DNA of 64,000 nt, from the NCBI RefSeq assembly GCF_003790525.1, contig NZ_CP033635.1; one strand, written 5' to 3'. How positions within the stretch are numbered: position 1 is the first letter of the stretch; every line of letters starts with the position of its first letter. The DNA comes from Escherichia coli. Its GTDB lineage: Bacteria; Pseudomonadota; Gammaproteobacteria; Enterobacterales; Enterobacteriaceae. A program made the position numbers and the translations under genes. This document shows positions 19,805 through 51,886 of the stretch, one piece after another. Under the pieces are notes generated by a model. The model did no database searches. It was given only the letters and a program-made list of their open reading frames with translations, and was not told where the DNA came from.

Positions 19805-20008
19805 ATGTTTGGTAACTTAGGACAGGCAAAAAAATATCTCGGCCAGGCGGCGAAGATGTTGATTGGCATTCCAGACTACGACAACTACGTCGAGCATATG
19901 AAGACCAACCATCCCGACAAGCCGTACATGAGCTATGAAGAATTCTTCCGCGAACGCCAGAACGCGCGCTACGGCGGCGATGGTAAAGGCGGTATGCGCT
20001 GTTGTTAA
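19805..20008 (+). CDS. yjiX: YjiX (DUF466-family small protein)
   Basis: 67-aa ORF immediately downstream of btsT, conserved partner in K-12. Confidence 0.85.
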
Positions 20009-20018
20009 TGGAGAGAGC

Positions 20019-20975
20019 ATGAACCCGATTGCAGTTACCCTACTCACCGGTTTTTTAGGCGCGGGCAAAACCACCCTGCTGCGCCATATTCTTAATGAAC
20101 AGCACGGCTACAAAATTGCCGTGATTGAAAACGAATTCGGCGAAGTCTCCGTTGATGATCAACTGATTGGCGATCGCGCCACGCAGATCAAAACGCTGAC
20201 CAACGGCTGCATCTGTTGTTCGCGCTCCAACGAGCTGGAGGACGCGCTACTCGACCTGCTGGATAATCTCGACAAGGGCAATATTCAGTTCGACCGTCTG
20301 GTCATTGAATGCACAGGCATGGCCGATCCCGGCCCGATTATTCAGACCTTTTTCTCCCATGAGATTTTATGCCAGCGTTACCTGCTGGACGGCGTGATTG
20401 CGCTGGTGGATGCGGTACATGCCGATGAGCAGATGAACCAGTTCACCATCGCCCAGTCACAGGTTGGCTACGCCGACCGTATTCTGCTGACTAAAACCGA
20501 CGTCGCAGGTGAAGCAGAAAAACTGCGCGAACGCCTGGCACGCATCAACGCCCGCGCACCGGTCTACACCGTCACCCACGGCGACATCGACCTGGGCCTG
20601 TTGTTCAACACCAACGGTTTTATGCTGGAAGAAAACGTCGTCAGCACCAAACCGCGTTTCCACTTTATCGCGGATAAACAAAACGATATTTCGTCGATTG
20701 TGGTGGAACTGGATTACCCGGTAGATATCAGCGAAGTTTCCCGCGTGATGGAAAACCTGCTGCTGGAATCGGCGGATAAACTGCTGCGTTACAAAGGGAT
20801 GCTGTGGATTGACGGCGAACCTAACCGCCTGCTGTTCCAGGGTGTCCAGCGCCTCTACAGCGCCGACTGGGACAGGCCATGGGGCGATGAAAAACCGCAT
20901 AGCACGATGGTGTTTATCGGGATTCAGCTGCCGGAGGAAGAGATTCGGGCGGCGTTTGCGGGGTTAAGGAAGTAA
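20019..20975 (+). CDS. yjiA: Zn-associated P-loop GTPase YjiA (CobW/COG0523 family)
   Basis: Start at MNPIAVTLLTGFLGAGKTTLL (P-loop), 318 aa; CxCC motif NGCICCS. Confidence 0.9.
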   Translation: MNPIAVTLLTGFLGAGKTTLLRHILNEQHGYKIAVIENEFGEVSVDDQLIGDRATQIKTLTNGCICCSRSNELEDALLDLLDNLDKGNIQFDRLVIECTGMADPGPIIQTFFSHEILCQRYLLDGVIALVDAVHADEQMNQFTIAQSQVGYADRILLTKTDVAGEAEKLRERLARINARAPVYTVTHGDIDLGLLFNTNGFMLEENVVSTKPRFHFIADKQNDISSIVVELDYPVDISEVSRVMENLLLESADKLLRYKGMLWIDGEPNRLLFQGVQRLYSADWDRPWGDEKPHSTMVFIGIQLPEEEIRAAFAGLRK

Positions 20976-21305
20976 TACCCTTAACCTACTAATACGAAGC
21001 GGACGAGGATAAAACCCTATCATTTTCCGTTCGCTTCACTATTTTATTTCGTTCCAACACCCATTAAAATTAAAAATATAATTCTGCCATAATTTCCTGA
21101 ACACAGATGTAATTACATTGCCACCACTCATACTTTTAAAAATAATTTATATGATAGACGTCCTATTGAGGCGTAATAGATGTATTAATTTCCAAATACG
21201 CAAACATTCTGGTACAGTCCAAAAAAGAAAAATCATCAACCAAAACAATCAGCAAATAAATTAACAACGATTGAATCATAATCAACACGAATACAAGAGA
21301 TTAAC

Positions 21306-23156
21306 ATGGCAACAATAATCCCAACAATCAGTAGCTGCAACGATAAAATTACTGCCGGAGAGAAAAGGCTGGCAAGAATTCTGGAAAGAGGACTAGGCGA
21401 AGAGTGCTGCTGTTGGTATGACATTCCCACGGGTGATAAGCATCTTCACCCAGATTTTATGATACTTTCGCCAGAAAAAGGCATTATTTTTCTCGAGGTA
21501 AAAGATTGGTTTATTACAAAAATAAAAAAAGCCAACAAGTCTAATGTGTTGTATGAGACACAAAATGGTATTCAATCTTTAAAGAATCCGATAGAACAAG
21601 TTAGGCGATATGCTTTCGAAGCTGTAAACCAGTTAAAAAAAGACCCCCTATTGTGCCAACAGGATGATCGTTACAATGGCAATCTTCTTTTCCCCTATGG
21701 ATATGGCGTCTACTTTAGTAATATTACACGAGAAGCATTAAATAATAAATTTACTCAAGAAGAGCTGCTCGGGATCTTCCCATCAGATCTCATCATCTGC
21801 AAAGACGAAATAAATGAATTCATGTCAAAAGAGGATGTTTCATCCAAAATACATTCGTTGATTAAATATGACTTCAAATGTCATGCTACACAAGAACAGT
21901 TGAACAGGATTAGATGGCACTTATACCCCGATGTCAGAATAGAAAGGGAAAAGAGAAGTAAAAACCGTGATGAATTTAGTGTCGATGCACCAACCATCAT
22001 TTCTATCCTGGATACTCAACAGGAACAACTTGCCAGAAGTATGAGAGATGGCCACCGGATCATTCATGGTGTTGCAGGTTCAGGGAAGACATTGATCCTC
22101 TATCATCGCTGTCAGGAATTAGCGAAAAAAAATGACAGCGAAAAGCCAATTCTTGTCATTTGCTACAATATTACTTTAGCCAAAAAACTTCGGTCGATGT
22201 TCATCAATCATCCCTTTGCAGAGAAAATAAAGGTTAAAAATTTTCATGCTTGGTGTTTCCAACAAATTAAAGAAAACAAGATCACTATTCCAGAAGGGGA
22301 TAATATTTTTGAAAATATGGAGCTAGCGTTGACTGATGGTTTCAAGACAGGAAAAATAAAACCAGAACAATACAGCGCTGTATTAATTGATGAAGGACAT
22401 GATTTTAAGCCAGAATGGTTAAAAATCCTGGCAAAAATGACTGACTCTCAGGACGAGAATTTGCTATTCCTTTATGATGATGCTCAGTCAATTTACCAAA
22501 AAAAGAAAGCATTAGACTTTACACTGTCCAGCGTAGATATTAAAGCGACAGGACGCACAACCATTCTTAATATAAATTATAGAAACACACAGCAAATCCT
22601 ACACTTTGCCAGTTGCATTGCATTTAATTATCTTAATAGCCATATCGATAGTTCTTTAACCTATCATAAACCTGCTGCGGGAGGAATGAATGGCGATTAT
22701 CCCAACCTTGAACATTTCGACACACAGGACGAAGAAATAGCACGAGCAGTCGAATGGATTACAGAGCAAAATGAACAAGGGATTCCGTGGTCTGAAATTG
22801 CTATACTAAGTCCATCAACTCACACCCTTTCTAACTCTCTAAGCTCTGTACTTGAATCGAAAAACATCCCCTTTAATCTTATTGTAAGCTCTGCAGATAA
22901 AAAGTCCTGGACGCCAGAACAAGAGCGTATTTCTGTTATGCCATTACCCAGCAGTAAAGGACTTGAGTTTCACTCAGTTGTCATTATTGATGCAGCGAGA
23001 ACACGGGATAATAGCGATGATTTGAGTGAGGATATAAAGAGACTCTATGTAGGTTTTACCCGAGCACGTTGCAATCTCTTGGTAACCTTGCACGGTGAAG
23101 GTGCGTTAAATGAGCATCTACTAAAAACCTATGAGCAAAGCCCACAATATATGTAA
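21306..23156 (+). CDS. NERD-domain nuclease fused to SF1 (UvrD-like) helicase; candidate single-gene anti-phage protein (Nhi-like architecture)
   Basis: 616 aa; NERD/PD-(D/E)xK-like N-terminus (HPDFMILSPEKGIIFLEVKDW); Walker A GVAGSGKT; Walker B VLIDEGHDF; UvrD_C-like RLYVGFTRARCNLLV; sits in an AT-rich block in the slot K-12 uses for mrr-hsdRMS. Confidence 0.75.
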   Translation: MATIIPTISSCNDKITAGEKRLARILERGLGEECCCWYDIPTGDKHLHPDFMILSPEKGIIFLEVKDWFITKIKKANKSNVLYETQNGIQSLKNPIEQVRRYAFEAVNQLKKDPLLCQQDDRYNGNLLFPYGYGVYFSNITREALNNKFTQEELLGIFPSDLIICKDEINEFMSKEDVSSKIHSLIKYDFKCHATQEQLNRIRWHLYPDVRIEREKRSKNRDEFSVDAPTIISILDTQQEQLARSMRDGHRIIHGVAGSGKTLILYHRCQELAKKNDSEKPILVICYNITLAKKLRSMFINHPFAEKIKVKNFHAWCFQQIKENKITIPEGDNIFENMELALTDGFKTGKIKPEQYSAVLIDEGHDFKPEWLKILAKMTDSQDENLLFLYDDAQSIYQKKKALDFTLSSVDIKATGRTTILNINYRNTQQILHFASCIAFNYLNSHIDSSLTYHKPAAGGMNGDYPNLEHFDTQDEEIARAVEWITEQNEQGIPWSEIAILSPSTHTLSNSLSSVLESKNIPFNLIVSSADKKSWTPEQERISVMPLPSSKGLEFHSVVIIDAARTRDNSDDLSEDIKRLYVGFTRARCNLLVTLHGEGALNEHLLKTYEQSPQYM

Positions 23157-23173
23157 AAATGATAAATTATCTC

Positions 23174-23205
23174 CATAACGCCCGGTAACGCTGTACCGGG
23201 CGTTA
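23174..23205 (+). terminator. Perfect 13-bp stem-loop downstream of NERD-helicase gene
   Basis: ataacgcccggta-acgctg-taccgggcgttat, 18 nt after stop; no strong T-run, so may be a structural element rather than a classic terminator. Confidence 0.5.
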
Positions 23206-23288
23206 TGAATGTATATCTAAGATATTAGTCACGCCTGATAGCCGCTACCAAAAACGCCATCATCTCCCTCTCATCTTTGCTGTGATAA

Positions 23289-23594
23289 AAGCGTACCATT
23301 TTGCTGTTAAATTCCAGCGCTTTAGCCACTGGAATTAACAAGTTCAAACTTCCGACAACGAAGTTCCAGTTATTACAAAAATTACTGGCAAAAGAGATGA
23401 AAAGCGTAGTTGACAACACATCGAAATATACTGACTGGAGTAAACGCGATGATATTAAAGCGAAACTGAAAGTTGAACTTATTCTGCTTCTACACAAGCA
23501 TAAGTTCCCGCCAGTAGCGAATGATGATGTTTATATGGGTGTGCTGGCACAGGCAGAGAATTTTAAAGAACATCATATGAGTGCTTTAAATTAA
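23289..23594 (+). pseudogene. Frame-closed 3' gene fragment, possibly the C-terminal domain of a type I restriction HsdR subunit
   Basis: Open frame begins straight after a TAA with no ATG or SD (track ORF 23301..23594 opens on TTG); helical, K/E-rich sequence ...VDNTSKYTDWSKRDDIKAKLKVELILLLHKHKFPPV... that I associate with HsdR C-termini (recollection, not verified). Confidence 0.3.
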
Positions 23595-23602
23595 TTATGA
23601 AG

Positions 23603-23628
23603 GCCGGATACACTTTGTTATCCGGCCA
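23603..23628 (+). terminator. Hairpin after the gene fragment
   Basis: ggccggata-cactttgt-tatccggcc, 9-bp stem, 8 nt after the fragment stop. Confidence 0.45.
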
Positions 23629-23713
23629 TTGTGAATTAACGTTAATTTCTCTTCCAGATATTTCCAGTAACGCTTTTATTATTTTCTATTTTTAGCTGGA
23701 CTTTCCCTGTATT

Positions 23714-23733
23714 TACTGATGATATGTCCAGGT
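23714..23733 (+). promoter_or_regulatory. Candidate LexA (SOS) box upstream of symE
   Basis: tactgatgatatgtccaggt contains CTG-N10-CAG about 80 nt upstream of symE ATG; K-12 symE is SOS-inducible. Confidence 0.45.
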
Positions 23734-23769
23734 ATTTAGCGCGGTGCGAATGTGCGCCAACACACCCGC

Positions 23770-23850
23770 ACCGCTCATCACAATCACTATTTATGGAGAA
23801 TAGTAATCATGACTGACACGCATTCTATTGCACAACCGTTCGAAGCAGAA
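23770..23850 (-). ncRNA. symR: SymR antisense sRNA (antitoxin) opposite the symE 5' end; position approximate
   Basis: Inferred from K-12 arrangement, where SymR is encoded antisense across the symE start; not independently visible in sequence. Confidence 0.4.
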
Positions 23851-24150
23851 GTCTCCCCGGCAAATAACCGTCAATTAACCGTGAGTTATGCGAGTCGCTA
23901 CCCGGATTACAGCCGTATTCCCGCCATCACCCTGAAAGGTCAGTGGCTGGAAACCGCCGGTTTTGCTACCGGCACGGCGGTAGATGTCAAAGTGATGGAA
24001 GGCTGTATTGTCCTCACCGCCCAACCACCCACCGCCGAAGAGAGCGAACTGATGCAGTCACTGCGCCAGGTGTGCAAGCTGTCAGCGCGTAAACAAAAGC
24101 AGGTGCGGGAATTTATTGGGGTGATTGCCGGTAAACAGAAAGTCGCCTGA
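23809..24150 (+). CDS. symE: SOS-induced toxin SymE (AbrB/SpoVT-fold endoribonuclease-like)
   Basis: In-frame ATG within ORF 23752..24150 gives [30 protein letters not shown]..., 113 aa, recognised as SymE. Confidence 0.9.
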
Positions 24151-24158
24151 TACATTGA

Positions 24159-24182
24159 CCCGGTAGCGCCAGTGCTACCGGG
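24159..24182. terminator. Bidirectional hairpin between convergent symE and GmrSD-like gene
   Basis: cccggtagc-gccagt-gctaccggg, 9-bp stem, in the 46-bp convergent gap. Confidence 0.6.
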
Positions 24183-24196
24183 TATTATTCGCCGTG

Positions 24197-26290
24197 TTAG
24201 ACCAACGCGCTCTCCATCTGTTTTTCAAATGCCTGACGAATTAATCCCATAACGTAAGGAAGTTGTGCGAGGTCGCTGAAACCAATTTCCACATCACCAT
24301 TGCCCCAGCGCCCAACATTTGTCACATCTTTGGCAATACCTTTCGGATCGACCAGTTCATGAAACTGCATATTAAGCGACAATCGCAGTCGGCTTTTTTG
24401 CGGCACAACATCAACAAAATTCGTTTCCGCTTTAAACGCAATATAGAGCTTCAATACTTCCTGCGTGATCCCTGCGTCCAGGCGCATAACTTCATCGCGA
24501 AGATGATCAAATAACACCCGGCTATGCGAACCATCAGCAAGAAAAGGATAATCACTCAGGCTATAACTGGTTTTGTTTTCAGGCTGCGCCCGATAAACAG
24601 CTAAAACCTCTTCAGGAAGAGCAGGCGCTTGCCAGACCTGAACCGCGAGATCGGCCAGACGATCGGCACGGGCGCGAATGGCGGCTTCATCCCATTTTTC
24701 GCACTGTCCAAGACCGATATTCAAATAAAGCGGGCTATGCTTAAAGCCGTCTTCAATATCGCGTTTTTCCGCGAAAGGTCTGTCACTGTAGCGGGAGTTA
24801 TAGCGCGTTAATGTGAGATTCCCCAACGTATGTAACAGTTCTTTATGCACACGCTGCCAGTCGCTTCCCAGCTCTTCACGCCATTTAGCCGACAAATTTT
24901 CGTTCTGCGGCATAATATGCTCAATCGTAAACTCTTCCACGCGCTCTCTGCGTTTATCGTTTTCCAGTCGTCGTAACCAGTAGCTGCGACTGCGGAAGTT
25001 ATAGAGATCGCGAACTTTTAATTCCCGTTTAAATTCATCATCGTTGGGGAAACGACGATATGAAGGCAGATTCAGAAAATGTACCTGAATACTTTCCAGA
25101 TATTTTTCTTTAATAATGACCTTATAAAAGGTAGCAAACGTCTTGTTAAGAGAATTTGTCGGAATCGCACATACTGCACGGCGGAAAACATAAGATTCAA
25201 TTAAACGAATTATGCTCAGGAAATCTTCGTGAGGCAAATCGCCATTTTTATAGTCATGATAAAGCGCCAGTAAGAAAGGATACGCCACATCGACCTTTAA
25301 CTCGCGCAAATCCTGAAAAGCCGTAGCAAGCGATTTGTCACTTTCTTTACCCAATGCCATTGCACAGTAATACTCCGCGTAGATGTGAATATCTTCAACC
25401 AGGTGATCCACGCCTTTTTCAGCAACACTCTGGCTGCGGGCATGGAGTTTAAATGCCTCATAGACTTCATCTGTACGAGGGATCTCCCCCGTTTTTACCG
25501 TCAGATAATGACGCATAAAGCTGTCAAAATATTCGCTGTAACCTTGCTGACCAAAAGCGACTTCCATTGGACGCCAGTGATCTTCATACAACCGGGTTTG
25601 ATGCTCTGGTTCGAGACCCATCAGAATAAAATTGCGCACCAGATCGGCCTGACTTAACGCCTTACCGGTAGAGTTCATACTTTCAAAAATCAGTTGCGGA
25701 TTATCCTGACCACGATTAAGCGCCACATCGACAATTAATAATTTTGCTAACCCACGACATAAGGGGATCAAGTCATCACCGAGTTTGGCAATTTGCTCAT
25801 CAAAGAAAGTAAAGTTTTCCATTATTCGATGGGAATAGTTTTCTGGCATTGGTCTTTGTTTTATTAACGCCAGCAAACTGTCTTTATCAGTCTCGGTCAG
25901 CAGTAATTTAAATCCTTTCTCGCCGGACTCATAAGGATTGAGTAAATAATAATTACGCAATTTCATTGCTGAAAAGCCATCAAAAACTTCGTCTTCGCCA
26001 AGATGACGCGATAAAGCCTCAATCAGCAACATTGCGGTCGTCAGCCTTTGTTGACCATCAATGACCAGTAACGGAGAAATACCAGAAACCTGATACAACC
26101 CCTGCTCAATATAAACAACCGAACCGATAAAATGCGCTGATATATCGTCACGCTTTCCGGCACGAATGATGTCGTCCCAAAGTTGCCGACATTGTTGTTC
26201 TGTCCATGAATAAGTCCGTTGATAAATGGGAATCACAAACTGCTGCGAACGTTTTAAAAAATCGAGTAGGCGGGCTTCTGTAGCTTTCAT
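24197..26290 (-). CDS. DUF262 (ParB-like NTPase) + DUF1524 (His-Me finger nuclease) protein: GmrSD-family type IV restriction-type enzyme
   Basis: 697 aa; DUF262 signature LVIDGQQRLTT near N-terminus; C-terminal HNH-like block EHIMPQN ... LHTLGNLTL; occupies the mcrBC side of the immigration control region. Confidence 0.8.
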   Translation of the reverse strand: MKATEARLLDFLKRSQQFVIPIYQRTYSWTEQQCRQLWDDIIRAGKRDDISAHFIGSVVYIEQGLYQVSGISPLLVIDGQQRLTTAMLLIEALSRHLGEDEVFDGFSAMKLRNYYLLNPYESGEKGFKLLLTETDKDSLLALIKQRPMPENYSHRIMENFTFFDEQIAKLGDDLIPLCRGLAKLLIVDVALNRGQDNPQLIFESMNSTGKALSQADLVRNFILMGLEPEHQTRLYEDHWRPMEVAFGQQGYSEYFDSFMRHYLTVKTGEIPRTDEVYEAFKLHARSQSVAEKGVDHLVEDIHIYAEYYCAMALGKESDKSLATAFQDLRELKVDVAYPFLLALYHDYKNGDLPHEDFLSIIRLIESYVFRRAVCAIPTNSLNKTFATFYKVIIKEKYLESIQVHFLNLPSYRRFPNDDEFKRELKVRDLYNFRSRSYWLRRLENDKRRERVEEFTIEHIMPQNENLSAKWREELGSDWQRVHKELLHTLGNLTLTRYNSRYSDRPFAEKRDIEDGFKHSPLYLNIGLGQCEKWDEAAIRARADRLADLAVQVWQAPALPEEVLAVYRAQPENKTSYSLSDYPFLADGSHSRVLFDHLRDEVMRLDAGITQEVLKLYIAFKAETNFVDVVPQKSRLRLSLNMQFHELVDPKGIAKDVTNVGRWGNGDVEIGFSDLAQLPYVMGLIRQAFEKQMESALV

Positions 26291-26386
26291 TCTGACGTCT
26301 TTCCGTGAAGCGATGATTTCGCAATAATAACCACTTCCTTGTGGAGGTTATAGAGAAATCCTGTTTATCCGCGACGAACTGCCCCA

Positions 26387-26551
26387 TCACTCCACATCCT
26401 CCCTGCGTAACCCAATATCCCTCAACCGCTCATCACTCATCTGCTGTAACACCCGCCGGGCCTGCATTTGCCGCCGCCAACGCCTCACTGCCTGCCAGAG
26501 TTGCACAAGTCCAATAAACGGTGCTTTAGCTTTGTTTTCGTGAAATTCCAT
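26387..26551 (-). CDS. yjiS: YjiS, DUF1127 small protein
   Basis: Hand-translated 54-aa ORF (below the track cutoff): MEFHENKAKAPFIGLVQLWQAVRRWRRQMQARRVLQQMSDERLRDIGLRREDVE; recognised as K-12 YjiS. Confidence 0.8.
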   Translation of the reverse strand: MEFHENKAKAPFIGLVQLWQAVRRWRRQMQARRVLQQMSDERLRDIGLRREDVE

Positions 26552-26727
26552 CTGCTGCCTCCTCATCTTTCAGAGGCTTCATCATCCGCCTTCTGGCAGT
26601 TCACAATACAGATGCAAATATTAGTTTTATTTAACATACAGACAGGTTAAAACAGCATCTGCATCCGGTTTTTTAGCCTCATCTGTACCGGTTTTTCTCT
26701 CTGTATGGTCCAAATAAGGAATACAGC

Positions 26728-28140
26728 ATGACGCGTTATCAACATCTGGCGACTTTGCTTGCCGAGCGGATTGAGCAAGGGCTGTATCGTCACGGGGAGA
26801 AATTGCCGTCGGTGCGCAGCTTAAGTCAGGAGCACGGCGTCAGCATCAGTACCGTGCAGCAGGCGTACCAGACGCTGGAAACGATGAAGCTCATCACTCC
26901 GCAGCCGCGTTCGGGTTATTTTGTCGCACAACGTAAAGCCCAGCCGCCAGTACCGCCGATGACGCGTCCGGTGCAGCGCCCGGTGGAAATTACCCAGTGG
27001 GATCAGGTGCTGGATATGCTGGAGGCGCATAGCGACAGTTCCATTGTTCCGTTAAGTAAAAGCACGCCGGATGTCGAAACGCCCAGCCTGAAACCGCTGT
27101 GGCGGGAGCTAAGCCGGGTGGTGCAGCATAATCTGCAAACCGTTCTCGGTTATGACTTGTTAGCCGGCCAGCGGGTATTGCGCGAGCAGATTGCCCGCCT
27201 GATGCTCGACAGCGGCTCGGTGGTCACCGCCGATGACATCATCATCACCAGCGGCTGCCATAACTCGATGTCGCTGGCGTTGATGGCAGTGTGTAAACCG
27301 GGCGATATTGTCGCGGTCGAATCCCCCTGTTATTACGGTTCGATGCAGATGCTGCGCGGCATGGGCGTGAAAGTGATTGAAATCCCCACCGATCCAGAAA
27401 CAGGCATCAGCGTTGAAGCGCTGGAACTGGCGCTGGAGCAGTGGCCGATTAAAGGCATCATTCTGGTGCCAAACTGTAATAATCCGCTGGGATTTATTAT
27501 GCCGGACGCGCGCAAACGGGCCGTTCTCTCTCTCGCTCAGCGTCATGATATTGTGATTTTTGAAGATGATGTCTACGGCGAACTGGCGACGGAGTATCCG
27601 CGCCCGCGGACCATTCATTCCTGGGATATCGACGGGCGAGTGCTGTTGTGCAGCTCGTTCAGTAAAAGTATTGCTCCAGGCCTGCGCGTGGGTTGGGTCG
27701 CACCGGGGCGCTATCACGATAAACTGCTGCATATGAAATATGCCATCAGCAGCTTTAATGTGCCGTCCACGCAAATGGCGGCGGCAACGTTTGTGCTGGA
27801 AGGTCACTATCATCGCCATATCCGGCGGATGCGGCAGATCTATCAGCGCAATTTGGCGCTTTATACCTGCTGGATACGGGAATATTTTCCCTGCGAAATC
27901 TGTATTACGCGCCCGAAAGGCGGATTTTTACTGTGGATCGAATTGCCTGAACAGGTCGATATGGTTTGCGTTGCGCGGCAGCTATACCGCATGAAAATCC
28001 AGGTGGCGGCAGGCTCGATTTTCTCAGCTTCCGGCAAATACCGTAATTGTCTGCGCATCAACTGCGCTTTGCCGCTCAGCGAAACCTATCGCGAAGCACT
28101 GAAGCAAATTGGCGAAGCCGTGTATCGGGCAATGGAATGA
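26728..28140 (+). CDS. yjiR: MocR-family regulator (GntR HTH fused to aminotransferase-like domain)
   Basis: 470 aa; N-terminal GntR HTH, large PLP-fold C-terminal domain; synteny. Confidence 0.9.
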   Translation: MTRYQHLATLLAERIEQGLYRHGEKLPSVRSLSQEHGVSISTVQQAYQTLETMKLITPQPRSGYFVAQRKAQPPVPPMTRPVQRPVEITQWDQVLDMLEAHSDSSIVPLSKSTPDVETPSLKPLWRELSRVVQHNLQTVLGYDLLAGQRVLREQIARLMLDSGSVVTADDIIITSGCHNSMSLALMAVCKPGDIVAVESPCYYGSMQMLRGMGVKVIEIPTDPETGISVEALELALEQWPIKGIILVPNCNNPLGFIMPDARKRAVLSLAQRHDIVIFEDDVYGELATEYPRPRTIHSWDIDGRVLLCSSFSKSIAPGLRVGWVAPGRYHDKLLHMKYAISSFNVPSTQMAAATFVLEGHYHRHIRRMRQIYQRNLALYTCWIREYFPCEICITRPKGGFLLWIELPEQVDMVCVARQLYRMKIQVAAGSIFSASGKYRNCLRINCALPLSETYREALKQIGEAVYRAME

Positions 28141-28326
28141 ATTCGAAATAGTGGCGAGCCCCCTGATTTCCTCTCACGAATAGCGTGTGACTCGTTTTAT
28201 CTTTGCAGGGTCATCTCCACGTTCCAGCATGGCTTAGGCAAAATGCGCTTCGTTCATGCCGGATGCCATGTGAACACCTTACCAGGTCTACAAAATCTTT
28301 AAAATTCAATATATTTAATGGGTTAT

Positions 28327-28355
28327 GTAGACCTGATAAGCGTAGCGCATCAGGC
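28327..28355. repeat. REP (repetitive extragenic palindromic) element
   Basis: gtagacctgataagcgtagcgcatcaggc resembles the REP consensus (...GCCTGATGCG...CTTATCAGGCCTAC); a partial second copy (caggtctaca) lies about 35 nt upstream. Confidence 0.6.
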
Positions 28356-28382
28356 TGCTTTGCGTTTGTCATCAGTCTCTGA

Positions 28383-29339
28383 TTAGTACTCGATCCATGG
28401 ATCGCGCTTGCTTTCAGGCAAGGGCTGCTCTAATGCCTGCATTTGCTCTGCCGAAAGTCCGGTATATCGTTGTATCCATTCAGGATCCGCCCCATTCTGC
28501 AACAACAATCGGAGGAGGCTCTTTTCCCCTTCTTCTTTCCCTTCTTTCCTCCCCCTCTCCCTTCCCAACAGCCATCCATCATTATGAATTCGCTCTGCAA
28601 TCGTCATTATTCGCTCCCTGTGTTGTGGCATTCGACGGATAAGTTCGCTGATAAACTCATTAAAACGCGCTTCATCGCCAGTCAGTAAAATGTAATTTAA
28701 CAGCGCGGTTATCTGGCTGTCATTAGCGCACCCTGTAACCAGTAATACTGCCAGTTGATCAATAAGCCCCATTAGATCGCGCTGGCGAATATGCTTTTGG
28801 ATCAACTCCAGCAGGGCGACTCTGCGATGCTGCACAATCTCGTCGTCTGGCACGACAGTGACATCCACCAGCGGGAACGCTGCGGTATAAAGCTTCCGCG
28901 CGGTAGCCGGGTCGGCAAATTCATCCAGCCAGCACAAAGACCAGGGGTAAGGACTACGGCTACTGTGATAAAACAGCATCGGGATGACCAGCGGTAGCGG
29001 CCGGCGTTTATCATGCTCGATATGGCGCTGCATCACCGCCATGGAATATCGCATCAGGCGAAAGGCCATATGGATATCCTCGCGGCTCTGATGTTCAATC
29101 ACCACATAAATATAGCCATCTCCTTCGCGGGTCTTTACCGACCACAGAATATCGGAATGTAGCGCCCGCAATTTTTCATCGACAAAGCTGGCGTATTCCA
29201 GTTTTAAGCTGTCGAGATCGCACAGTTCACGTAAATCTTTGGGTAAGTGGATCTCCATAAAATCCCGCGCGGTGTCAGGGTGGGTGAGAAAAGATTTAAA
29301 TAATGCGTCATGCGGCGTGCTGGTCGTGAAGTTTGTCAT
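28383..29339 (-). CDS. rpnD: Rpn-family recombination-promoting nuclease (PD-(D/E)xK, YhgA-like), intact
   Basis: 318-aa uninterrupted ORF recognised as YjiP/YjiQ (RpnD); acidic/lysine-rich C-terminal tail. Confidence 0.8.
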
Positions 29340-29805
29340 GGCGATCCGTCACCTGTAGATAAGATGGCCCGACTGTAGCGACTAACAAAACCATTCTCAC
29401 CCGGCAATTTCTCGTTCCCCGAGGTGCTTTCCAGGCTATTTTTGTTCCTCTGCAAACGATACATTTTTCCGGAAACAGGCTCGCGTTTTACATTTCCTGT
29501 ACCCGGCAGATATTCCCCTTTCCACCGCACTCTTTTGATTAACCGCAAATTTTAATTACACTTAAGGTGTATATTTTCTATGCAACCCATCAATTCAAGA
29601 GGTGTAATGTGCTGATGACTATTTGTAATCGTTATACATTCTGACCTGGAGTCAGAAGGTATTTCTCTGTCTGTGTGTTCACAGGCAGTGTGGTTGATTA
29701 CATGAAATTCAGTACATTTGCCCTTCTCGCCTGCCTTTCGTCATTACCGACGGTATTGAATTTCGTTTTCCCCATTGGGGTTCTCCGGACAAGGAGTTGT
29801 TTGTT

Positions 29806-50515: not shown

Positions 50516-51886
50516 TTAAAAGACTTTTACGCCATTTTGCTGTAAGCGTTCCTGTACCGTCTGAATATCTACCTGTGAAACGGTAGTGTTATTTTTAATG
50601 GCAATAGCAGCGGCAGTCCCTGCACCTTCTCCAGTGACAATACAACACCCCATATTACGGATTGTCGCATAGGCGAAATTATCTGCATCGATTGCCCGTC
50701 CGCAAACCAACAGGTTTTCAACTTGCTGCGGAATCATTACGCCATAAGGGATTTGAAAATAGTTCGCTTCAAGAGGTAATTTAAGATGACCATTTCCATC
50801 TATAAACTCAGGGAATACCCCTATTGAATCCGCATGACGTCCCTCATTACAAATATCATTTTCCGTAAGCTGGACTCGCCCAATAATATGTCTTGATTCT
50901 CTTGTTCCCACCGTCATACCGAAATTTTTTAATTGTGCCTGTTCAAATCCTGGCTGGAATTGACGCAACGCTTCAATCGCCTGCATGGCTTGCTTGCGGC
51001 CTTCTATTTCTGCACGCGTCAGGTCAAAAACATCCGTACAATCGACGGCAGGGATGCTGACAACGTTCAAGTAATTCGCATCACCATACTCGGTGACCGT
51101 ACTCCAGGAACCGCCTAACGTCACATCTTTTGGAATAATTCCTGCCGACTTTCCTTTCGCAAAGACTTTACCCAGATAAGGGCTAAACATATCGCGACAA
51201 GATTCATGAACATCATAAGACCAGTTTTTATTTTCTTCATCCGCCCCCCAGTCTCCATATTTAGGTTCCGTGCTCTTAATATTTTGCATGAACGCGTTTT
51301 TATTTATATTTGCGCAACTAAAAACGGTTGTCATACACATTAGCTCTTCGCGTTCACGCTTAATAAATGGTGCTCCGGCAAACCATGCAATATCGGCATC
51401 GCCAGTACAGTCAATAATGACATTCGCCAAAATAGCCTGACGACCAGATTTACTCTCTGTTATTACGCCGAGTAAATTATTGCCCTGCTTAATAACATCA
51501 ACGGCGGTAATGTGTAGTACGCGGCGCACACCTGCCTGTTCAAGCATTGCATCCGCAACCAGTTTGAAACGCTCGGCGTTAATAGCCTGACTATTCGATT
51601 GCGGCTCAGGGCTGGACGCCCCCATTGATTTTGCCGTTTCTTCTATTTCGCGTGCCAGTCCACCTGACTCTACCGTATTTTCATGACGCCACCAGGCAAT
51701 TGACTCGACGCCAGCCGTTGTCATCATTCCGCCAAAACAACCGAAACGTTCAATCAGCATAGTAGCTGCGCCTTCACGAGCGGCACTCATTGCTGCGGCA
51801 ATACCCGATGGACCACCACCAACAACTAACACTTCCGTGGTTGCCAGTACAGGTATATTACGAGCGGGTTCCAGATAAAATTCCAT
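50516..51886 (-). CDS. FAD-dependent oxidoreductase (paralog 1)
   Basis: 456 aa; N-terminal dinucleotide-binding VVGGGPSGIAAAMSAAREG; shares many blocks with 61055..62449 (e.g. DCTGDADIA, FDCTDVFDLTKAEI / VDCTDVFDLTRAEI, GIFPEFIDG, MRNM.CC.VTGE). Confidence 0.7.
   Translation of the reverse strand: MEFYLEPARNIPVLATTEVLVVGGGPSGIAAAMSAAREGAATMLIERFGCFGGMMTTAGVESIAWWRHENTVESGGLAREIEETAKSMGASSPEPQSNSQAINAERFKLVADAMLEQAGVRRVLHITAVDVIKQGNNLLGVITESKSGRQAILANVIIDCTGDADIAWFAGAPFIKREREELMCMTTVFSCANINKNAFMQNIKSTEPKYGDWGADEENKNWSYDVHESCRDMFSPYLGKVFAKGKSAGIIPKDVTLGGSWSTVTEYGDANYLNVVSIPAVDCTDVFDLTRAEIEGRKQAMQAIEALRQFQPGFEQAQLKNFGMTVGTRESRHIIGRVQLTENDICNEGRHADSIGVFPEFIDGNGHLKLPLEANYFQIPYGVMIPQQVENLLVCGRAIDADNFAYATIRNMGCCIVTGEGAGTAAAIAIKNNTTVSQVDIQTVQERLQQNGVKVF

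Follow-up and report, generated by a model that had tools for sequence, protein, structure and literature searches.

The immigration control region (ICR) of Escherichia coli lies within the 64,000-nucleotide stretch of DNA analyzed here (contig NZ_CP033635.1 of assembly GCF_003790525.1; hereafter the 64-kb window). Our data indicate that an intact open reading frame (ORF) in this region, which we call gmrSD, probably encodes a self-contained, single-polypeptide nuclease of the GmrSD family, cluster CLS_001, that would use nucleoside triphosphate (NTP) hydrolysis to license cutting of modified DNA by a His-Me finger (we place the probability of this reading at roughly 0.7). The gene is as follows.

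24197..26290, minus strand: intact GmrSD-family ORF of 697 amino acids (aa) with an ATG start, from the ORF list and its translation.

Translation of 24197-26290 on the minus strand revealed no internal stop across the 697 codons. Positions 20000-30000 of the window are 100% identical to the reverse strand of E. coli SMS-3-5 (NC_010498.1), and the ORF is EcSMS35_4888 of the GenBank record, formerly WP_000648224.1/ECSMS35_RS29565 in RefSeq, at 5005139..5007232. The older RefSeq release gave a single protein, WP_000648224.1, at those coordinates, as recorded in Supplementary Data 6 of Silas et al. 2025 (PMC12373910). The identical 697-aa sequence is present on 729 contigs, where it is titled 'conserved hypothetical protein [E. 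coli SMS-3-5]'. The current RefSeq/PGAP annotation, by contrast with the older one, cuts the ORF into a DUF262 pseudogene, RS29980 (ECSMS35_RS29980), described as incomplete with its C-terminus missing, and a second feature, RS29985, a 387-aa 'GmrSD restriction endonuclease domain-containing protein' that covers the C-terminal part. We found the same division into a partial DUF262 feature and a 387-aa feature in 8 of the 9 allelic copies examined (H38-H40 were seen in the hit table only), the partial feature being a pseudogene or, in O157:H7, a separate coding sequence (CDS). Even the intact alleles of two B2 strains (L015, L017) are annotated with this split despite an open 697-codon frame, and WP accessions within the cluster of the ORF were seen only on truncated 387-aa members. 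Because the frame is open, homologues of ~700 aa are colinear with it and the older call was full-length, the split is unsupported. It parallels the pair of CDSs into which a frameshift divides the gene in O157:H7, from which we infer that it is in all likelihood an artefact of the annotation evidence. Defence censuses based on current RefSeq proteins may well miss or mis-score this GmrSD. In the same two B2 strains the ORF can be extended by 36 codons at its 5' end to 733 aa, the length of APECO1_2080 in He et al., a small hypothetical gene is annotated upstream of the gmrSD ATG, and there is no yjiS within 300 bp upstream.

The domains and motifs of the 697-aa protein map to the window as follows.

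25625..26266, minus strand: GmrSD_N/DUF262, ParB-like NTPase domain, residues 9-222 (PF03235, Pfam-A, E 9.4e-35).
~26045-26059, minus strand: codons of the DGQQR motif, residues 78-82, within VIDGQQRLTT.
25049..25624, minus strand: all-helical linker or central domain, residues ~223-414 (AlphaFold2 (AF2) model, helices H228-H406).
24650..25048, minus strand: GmrSD_C/DUF1524 His-Me finger nuclease domain, residues 415-547 (PF07510, E 1.1e-26).
~24797-24922, minus strand: predicted catalytic residues E457-H458...P461...N491...N498, from the alignment, within TIEHIMPQN...LGNLTLTRYNS.
24221..24520, minus strand: DUF5655 domain, residues 591-690 (PF18899, E 2.6e-13).

The assignment to the GmrSD family by DUF262 plus DUF1524, which an earlier reading of these letters made without database searches (the sequence-only reading), is thus borne out by hidden Markov model (HMM) matches to both families and by catalytic residues that vary little or not at all among 72 aligned full-length homologues (34-82% identity). 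D78, Q80, Q81, R82, N206, N220, R370, P461 and N491 are invariant in this alignment, and G79, E457, H458 and N498 are nearly so; the DGQQR motif named in that reading is therefore present, at residues 78-82, and is kept across the homologues. The reading had also placed the His-Me finger at the C-terminus. The finger is there, but it lies at residues ~455-500 of 697, and a third domain, DUF5655, which was missing from the earlier description, comes after it. The AF2 model of the full-length protein (mean predicted local distance difference test score, pLDDT, 90.8; predicted template-modelling score, pTM, 0.81) places DUF262 and DUF1524 on a single chain with the helical linker (residues ~228-406) between them, and DUF5655 adopts a YdhG/YjbR/frataxin-like alpha-beta sandwich ('double-wing'-like). 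We consider DUF5655 an accessory module because some close relatives, ~560 aa in length, lack it; others carry different C-terminal additions. The domain also matches the C-terminus of PDC-S18, a defence-embedded PADLOC candidate, and was not mentioned in the literature searched. Its modelled fold makes a DNA-binding or sensing role plausible.

Proteins of this kind are widespread. Clustering at 90% identity places gmrSD in a cluster of 3852 members, and matches at E<=1e-30 fall into 2782 clusters at 50% identity. Three-domain homologues of 697-701 aa with 70-84% identity occur in other Enterobacteriaceae, in other Gammaproteobacteria and in Kiritimatiella, and among the 50 AFDB50 matches listed, most are DUF262 proteins of ~690-700 aa, or fragments of such proteins, from Bacteria (Helicobacter, Bacteroides, Eubacterium, Proteus) and Archaea (Methanobrevibacter). 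No NCBIfam family matched the 697-aa protein, which hence has no curated equivalog name.

Comparison of the SMS-3-5 allele with three other main-type E. coli alleles gave a ratio of nonsynonymous to synonymous substitution rates (dN/dS) of ~0.065, and comparison with a 76%-identical second allele gave 0.062, indicating that the gmrSD family is under strong purifying selection. Several strains nevertheless carry lesions in the gene. In O157:H7, a 1-nucleotide deletion (ORF nucleotide 801) shifts the frame, and the record gives two proteins, one of 293 aa with DUF262 and one of 387 aa. Codon 330 is a stop in O55:H7, and in further strains, among them ETEC1746, IS1 has inserted or the 3' half is deleted in association with IS1. 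Defence genes commonly show such a pairing of purifying selection with repeated loss of function, and the coexistence of intact alleles with alleles independently inactivated by frameshift, nonsense mutation or IS1 provides a natural series for studying the costs and benefits of a type IV enzyme.

The gene order across this part of the window is tsr, btsT, yjiX, yjiA, a 616-aa gene, an hsdR fragment, symE, gmrSD (minus strand), yjiS, yjiR, rpn and mdtM. DNA alignment with K-12 showed that homology stops a few bases past the yjiS stop (~26381) and restarts at the symE stop (~24146), such that the interval contains yjiT, the pseudogene yjiV (yjiV'), mcrC and mcrB in K-12 and gmrSD alone in SMS-3-5. 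The slot and its flanks are as follows.

24147..26381, no strand: variable ICR cassette slot between symE and yjiS, from alignment with K-12.
26387..26551, minus strand: yjiS (DUF1127), conserved flank directly upstream of gmrSD, with a 96-nucleotide spacer.
23809..24150, plus strand: symE, conserved flank, convergent with gmrSD.
23738..23814, minus strand: symR, antisense small RNA of symE (Rfam symR, 92.8 bits).
24158..24183, no strand: perfect hairpin with a 10-bp stem, ACCCGGTAGC-ACTGGC-GCTACCGGGT, between the convergent gmrSD and symE stops, found by eye.

The statement in the sequence-only reading that the enzyme replaces McrBC is accurate insofar as gmrSD occupies the same yjiS-symE slot as mcrBC of K-12. 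The word 'replaces', however, takes K-12 as the reference, and the gmrSD cassette is the more common of the two: at a coverage of at least 80%, it was detected in 1358 of 5426 complete E. coli genomes (~25%), and K-12-type mcrBC was detected in 582. A 2025 EcoSal Plus review (PMC12707154) reports GmrSD at 12% and McrBC at 6% of 9040 enterobacterial ICR loci. The yjiS-symE slot of the ICR accommodates several alternative cassettes, of which K-12 McrBC is less common than gmrSD. The second allele, with 73.5% nucleotide identity, is located elsewhere in the ICR of other strains, beside Fic/BrnA genes and a type I M-S-R operon. K-12 YjiT, whose gene takes up the yjiS-proximal end of the slot, was considered as a diverged or truncated homologue and rejected, as BLASTP found no significant similarity (best E 0.19). 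The hairpin between the convergent stops is a candidate bidirectional terminator, judging by its sequence and position, although a terminator scan based on T-runs did not detect it, and in a consensus scan for promoters and terminators around gmrSD, sites were no more frequent than in shuffled sequence. The symE/symR toxin-antitoxin pair is intact in the window; symE is frameshifted in O157:H7.

In the mechanism that we propose, the ParB-like DUF262 domain would bind and hydrolyse NTP via DGQQR, the helical middle domain would connect both ends of the protein and probably mediate dimerisation, the DUF1524 His-Me finger (E457/H458, N491, N498) would nick or cut DNA, and the 'double-wing'-like DUF5655 module might bind DNA or a ligand. 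Since gmrSD stands alone, has no modification genes nearby and encodes an enzyme that its host must tolerate, that enzyme most likely leaves unmodified host DNA intact and attacks phage DNA that enters with modified bases, and so acts in type IV restriction; no dnd, ssp or BREX genes are annotated within the 64-kb window. Several points weigh against this proposal. Independent inactivation in several lineages indicates that gmrSD is dispensable or costly. The consensus scan found no above-chance promoter upstream of the gmrSD ATG. According to He et al. 2015 (PMC4437046), identity between the prototype Eco94GmrSD and APECO1_2080, a homologue encoded at this locus, is only ~24%, and the nearest solved relatives, DndI and SspE, sense phosphorothioate as a mark of self and are not modification-dependent cutters. 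Finally, we found no experiment on the CLS_001 clade in the literature searched.

The context of homologues in other genomes bears on what else the protein could be. Three of them lie in or beside type I restriction-modification (R-M) operons, at the following positions of their own loci.

L006, 8001-10103: Kiritimatiella glycovorans homologue, 71% identity, flanked by hsdS and hsdR (stop and start codons overlap).
L008, 8001-10103: Salinivibrio homologue, 71% identity, flanked by hsdS and hsdR (stop and start codons overlap).
L004, 8001-10100: Oceanimonas homologue, 73% identity, directly after hsdR and behind a BrxR regulator.

The position between hsdS and hsdR is that of PrrC in EcoprrI. 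By analogy, the gmrSD product could be a trigger-activated nuclease that is held latent, perhaps through DUF5655 and perhaps by a type I R-M complex, and fires in response to a phage factor or to inhibition of the R-M system. The three embedded homologues point in this direction, as does the occurrence of DUF5655 in the defence-embedded PDC-S18, and GmrSD-like genes often occur inside type I R-M systems, as noted by Payne et al. 2024 (10.1101/2024.01.29.577857). We regard a PrrC-like role as unlikely, however, since the type I system of SMS-3-5 is gone except for an hsdR fragment while gmrSD is intact and its family is under purifying selection, since other homologues stand alone among housekeeping genes, and since embedded relatives such as BrxU act independently of the host system. 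One homologue on a metagenomic contig, for example, is surrounded by housekeeping genes, and the Nitrincola homologue adjoins Mks-like genes. The occurrence of homologues both alone and within type I R-M operons shows that the gene requires no fixed partner, consistent with a self-contained enzyme. Identity of 71-73% across phyla implies recent horizontal spread. The embedding between hsdS and hsdR in distant phyla, together with the unusually high identity of 70% or more across them, also raises a related idea, that the ~700-aa DUF262-DUF1524-DUF5655 clade is more than one further 5-hydroxymethylcytosine-directed GmrSD and owes a distinct mode of recognition or control to its conserved 'double-wing' domain, such as recognition of a non-cytosine hypermodification or a PrrC-like guard arrangement that ties the nuclease to a type I R-M complex; we regard this as unlikely.

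A different possibility is that the protein resembles the effectors SspE and DndI, which would mean that it senses a backbone or base modification of host DNA (phosphorothioate, for example) as self and nicks DNA that lacks it. The similarity searches lean this way: in a profile search of PDB sequences the nearest match was DndI (9JFL; E 4.5e-39, core residues 6-555), followed by SspE (5.5e-22), Foldseek of the AF2 model against the PDB gave the same order (DndI, E 2e-16; SspE, E 1e-13; BrxU, E 7e-5), and the top PADLOC match was Orf5 (DndI-type; PDLC02693, 738 bits, residues 10-553). PADLOC 'Orf5' is DndI, the orf5 of dndBCDE-orf5-dndFGH (PMC4198939). The key tyrosine of the hydrophobic cavity that senses phosphorothioate is Y25 in DndI and Y30 in SspE, and Y23 of the gmrSD protein aligns with the former. 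Y23, however, belongs to the YQRxYxW motif common to DUF262 domains and is non-diagnostic, and there are no dnd or ssp genes within the window. The cassette is present in ~25% of complete E. coli genomes, whereas Dnd accounts for 2% of loci at hotspot 37, the island to which the EcoSal Plus review assigns it (PMC12707154, Table 3). DndI reportedly stays active as a nuclease and damages the DNA of cells without phosphorothioate; selection would be expected to remove a copy that behaves in this way without its partners, whereas the dN/dS of 0.065 indicates that gmrSD is maintained. An effector of this type is accordingly quite improbable here. Least probable, and in our judgment very unlikely, is that the ORF is a decaying relic, as is implied by the current RefSeq record with its incomplete pseudogene (RS29980) and separate 387-aa protein (RS29985). 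Real lesions do exist elsewhere (the O157:H7 deletion, the O55:H7 stop at codon 330, and the IS1 insertions and truncation), but in SMS-3-5 the frame is open for 697 codons and colinear with both ~700-aa homologues and full-length HMM matches, all catalytic residues are kept, dN/dS is 0.065, and the older RefSeq release gave a single 697-aa protein. For SMS-3-5 itself, we rejected the status of pseudogene on account of the open frame, the colinear homologues and the former full-length annotation. The best supported of the readings is a self-contained GmrSD nuclease that would act on modified DNA.

The gene, the strain and this interpretation have already been published, and the finding, though correct, is ordinary: gmrSD is a catalogued and common member of its family and matters little as a discovery. 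He et al. 2015 (PMC4437046), the only paper that a literature search by locus tags and accessions turned up, list EcSMS35_4888 among the ICR homologues of GmrSD in their Fig 8 and report that gmrSD replaces mcrBC in the ICR genomes listed. In Silas et al. 2025 (PMC12373910), Supplementary Data 6 lists ECSMS35_RS29565 under CLS_001, a cluster of 116 members that comes first among the 20 most common enterobacterial GmrSD clusters, and that paper describes a challenge of one representative from each of 15 GmrSD groups with T-even phages, in which five further systems were active. The coordinates of our ORF in NC_010498.1, between yjiS and symE, are identical to those of the CLS_001 entry. A paper on the deoxyarchaeosine phage 9g mentions the GmrSD of the ICR as a prospect only and reports no test. 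What is new here is in the details, namely the counts of 1358 versus 582 among 5426 genomes, the selection estimates, the repeated inactivation, the annotation split, the proximity to DndI and SspE, the fold of DUF5655 and the embedding in type I operons.

Four other features of the window deserve mention.

23385-23594, plus strand: hsdR remnant (C-terminal end, type I), directly upstream of symE.
21306-23156, plus strand: 616-aa gene with NERD and UvrD-type helicase regions, low GC content (0.36-0.38), between yjiA and symE.
34987-36960, plus strand: 657-aa pentapeptide-repeat protein, very low GC content (0.34-0.36).
~50516-51886 and neighbours, minus strand: ibeA, next to dhaR and the gcl-hyi-glycerate kinase genes.

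The hsdR remnant points to an M-S-R type I system that the SMS-3-5 lineage once had and then lost by deletion or replacement. The 616-aa gene, named '3'-5' exonuclease' in RefSeq, occupies the stretch that holds mrr-hsdRMS in K-12 and matches PADLOC C3a187 'NERD+UvrD' (1.3e-140), with weaker GajB, Nhi and AbiO-like matches; by these similarities it is probably another single-gene defence candidate. The pentapeptide-repeat gene lies between a DUF3343 gene and an SdiA-regulated-domain gene (named ytiA and yjiK, respectively, in the record of another strain) and looks horizontally acquired; the protein had no PADLOC match, and no Pfam domain was found in its N-terminal ~380 residues. The neighbourhood of ibeA presumably corresponds to the GimA island associated with extraintestinal pathogenic E. 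coli (ExPEC), here in an environmental strain.

DndI and SspE are the nearer relatives of the gmrSD clade, by both sequence and predicted fold in the comparison with BrxU; BrxU and the prototype GmrSD enzymes are more distant. Because DndI and SspE sense phosphorothioate, specificity for 5-hydroxymethylcytosine (hmC) or glucosyl-hmC DNA is not to be assumed. DndI of Salmonella Cerro 87 (PDB 9JFL), the nearest solved structure, combines an NTPase with a His-Me nickase, as the gmrSD product is predicted to; it differs in that it works with DndBCDE, senses phosphorothioate and lacks DUF5655, and the two share ~19% identity. SspE (PDB 6JIV/7DRS), the second-best structural match, shares the DUF262 domain with DGQQR and the DUF1524 nicking domain, but it is 771 aa long, has a different middle region and depends on phosphorothioation of host DNA by SspABCD, and its sequence similarity to the gmrSD protein is mostly limited to the N-terminal ~100 residues. 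BrxU (PDB 7P9K; from the BREX systems of pEFER and ECOR21) follows the same domain logic and restricts phages with modified cytosines independently of the host system, but it is BREX-embedded, whereas the window has no BREX genes around gmrSD, and the similarity is at the level of the fold. It was detected neither by phmmer nor by the profile at a cut-off of E<=0.01 against PDB sequences, and we therefore rejected it as the nearest relative by sequence. The grouping of the enzyme in the sequence-only reading with GmrSD, BrxU and SspE as proteins that target modified DNA thus holds for the domain family and needs amendment otherwise, since SspE senses host phosphorothioate and BrxU is more distant.

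HEC-06, a validated GmrSD-like defence protein of Hma systems, was also matched by PADLOC (PDLC04155; E 3e-67, residues 8-555 versus model positions 12-560/562), and both the generic type IV model and the SspE model of PADLOC gave weaker matches than Orf5 and HEC-06. The HEC-06 models span ~560 positions and leave the DUF5655 region uncovered, and HEC-06 is embedded in Hma, whereas gmrSD lies in the ICR without Hma context. Mutation of either DGQQR or EH in HEC-06 abolishes phage defence (Payne et al. 2024, 10.1101/2024.01.29.577857). The occupant of the slot in K-12, McrBC (in the K-12 record, subunits McrB and McrC of a 5-methylcytosine-specific enzyme), shares with the proposed activity of gmrSD a modification-dependent and NTP-dependent mode of restriction. 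McrB is an AAA+ GTPase and McrC is a PD-(D/E)xK nuclease. McrBC is an unrelated two-subunit enzyme, and we found no homology between it and the gmrSD protein. A parallel in organization is provided by the prototype GmrSD enzymes (GmrSD of CT596, Eco94GmrSD and the 'UT' enzyme of UTI89), each of which is a single chain from a stand-alone E. coli gene with the same succession of DUF262, helical linker and DUF1524 His-Me domain. The prototypes act on glucosyl-hmC and hmC DNA and contain an acidic-His...N...N catalytic motif, as does the gmrSD protein; in Eco94GmrSD, D507, H508 and N522 are essential for endonuclease activity (PMC4437046). The prototypes, however, are prophage-borne, ~600-630 aa in length and without DUF5655, whereas the gmrSD described here is chromosomal and resides in the ICR.

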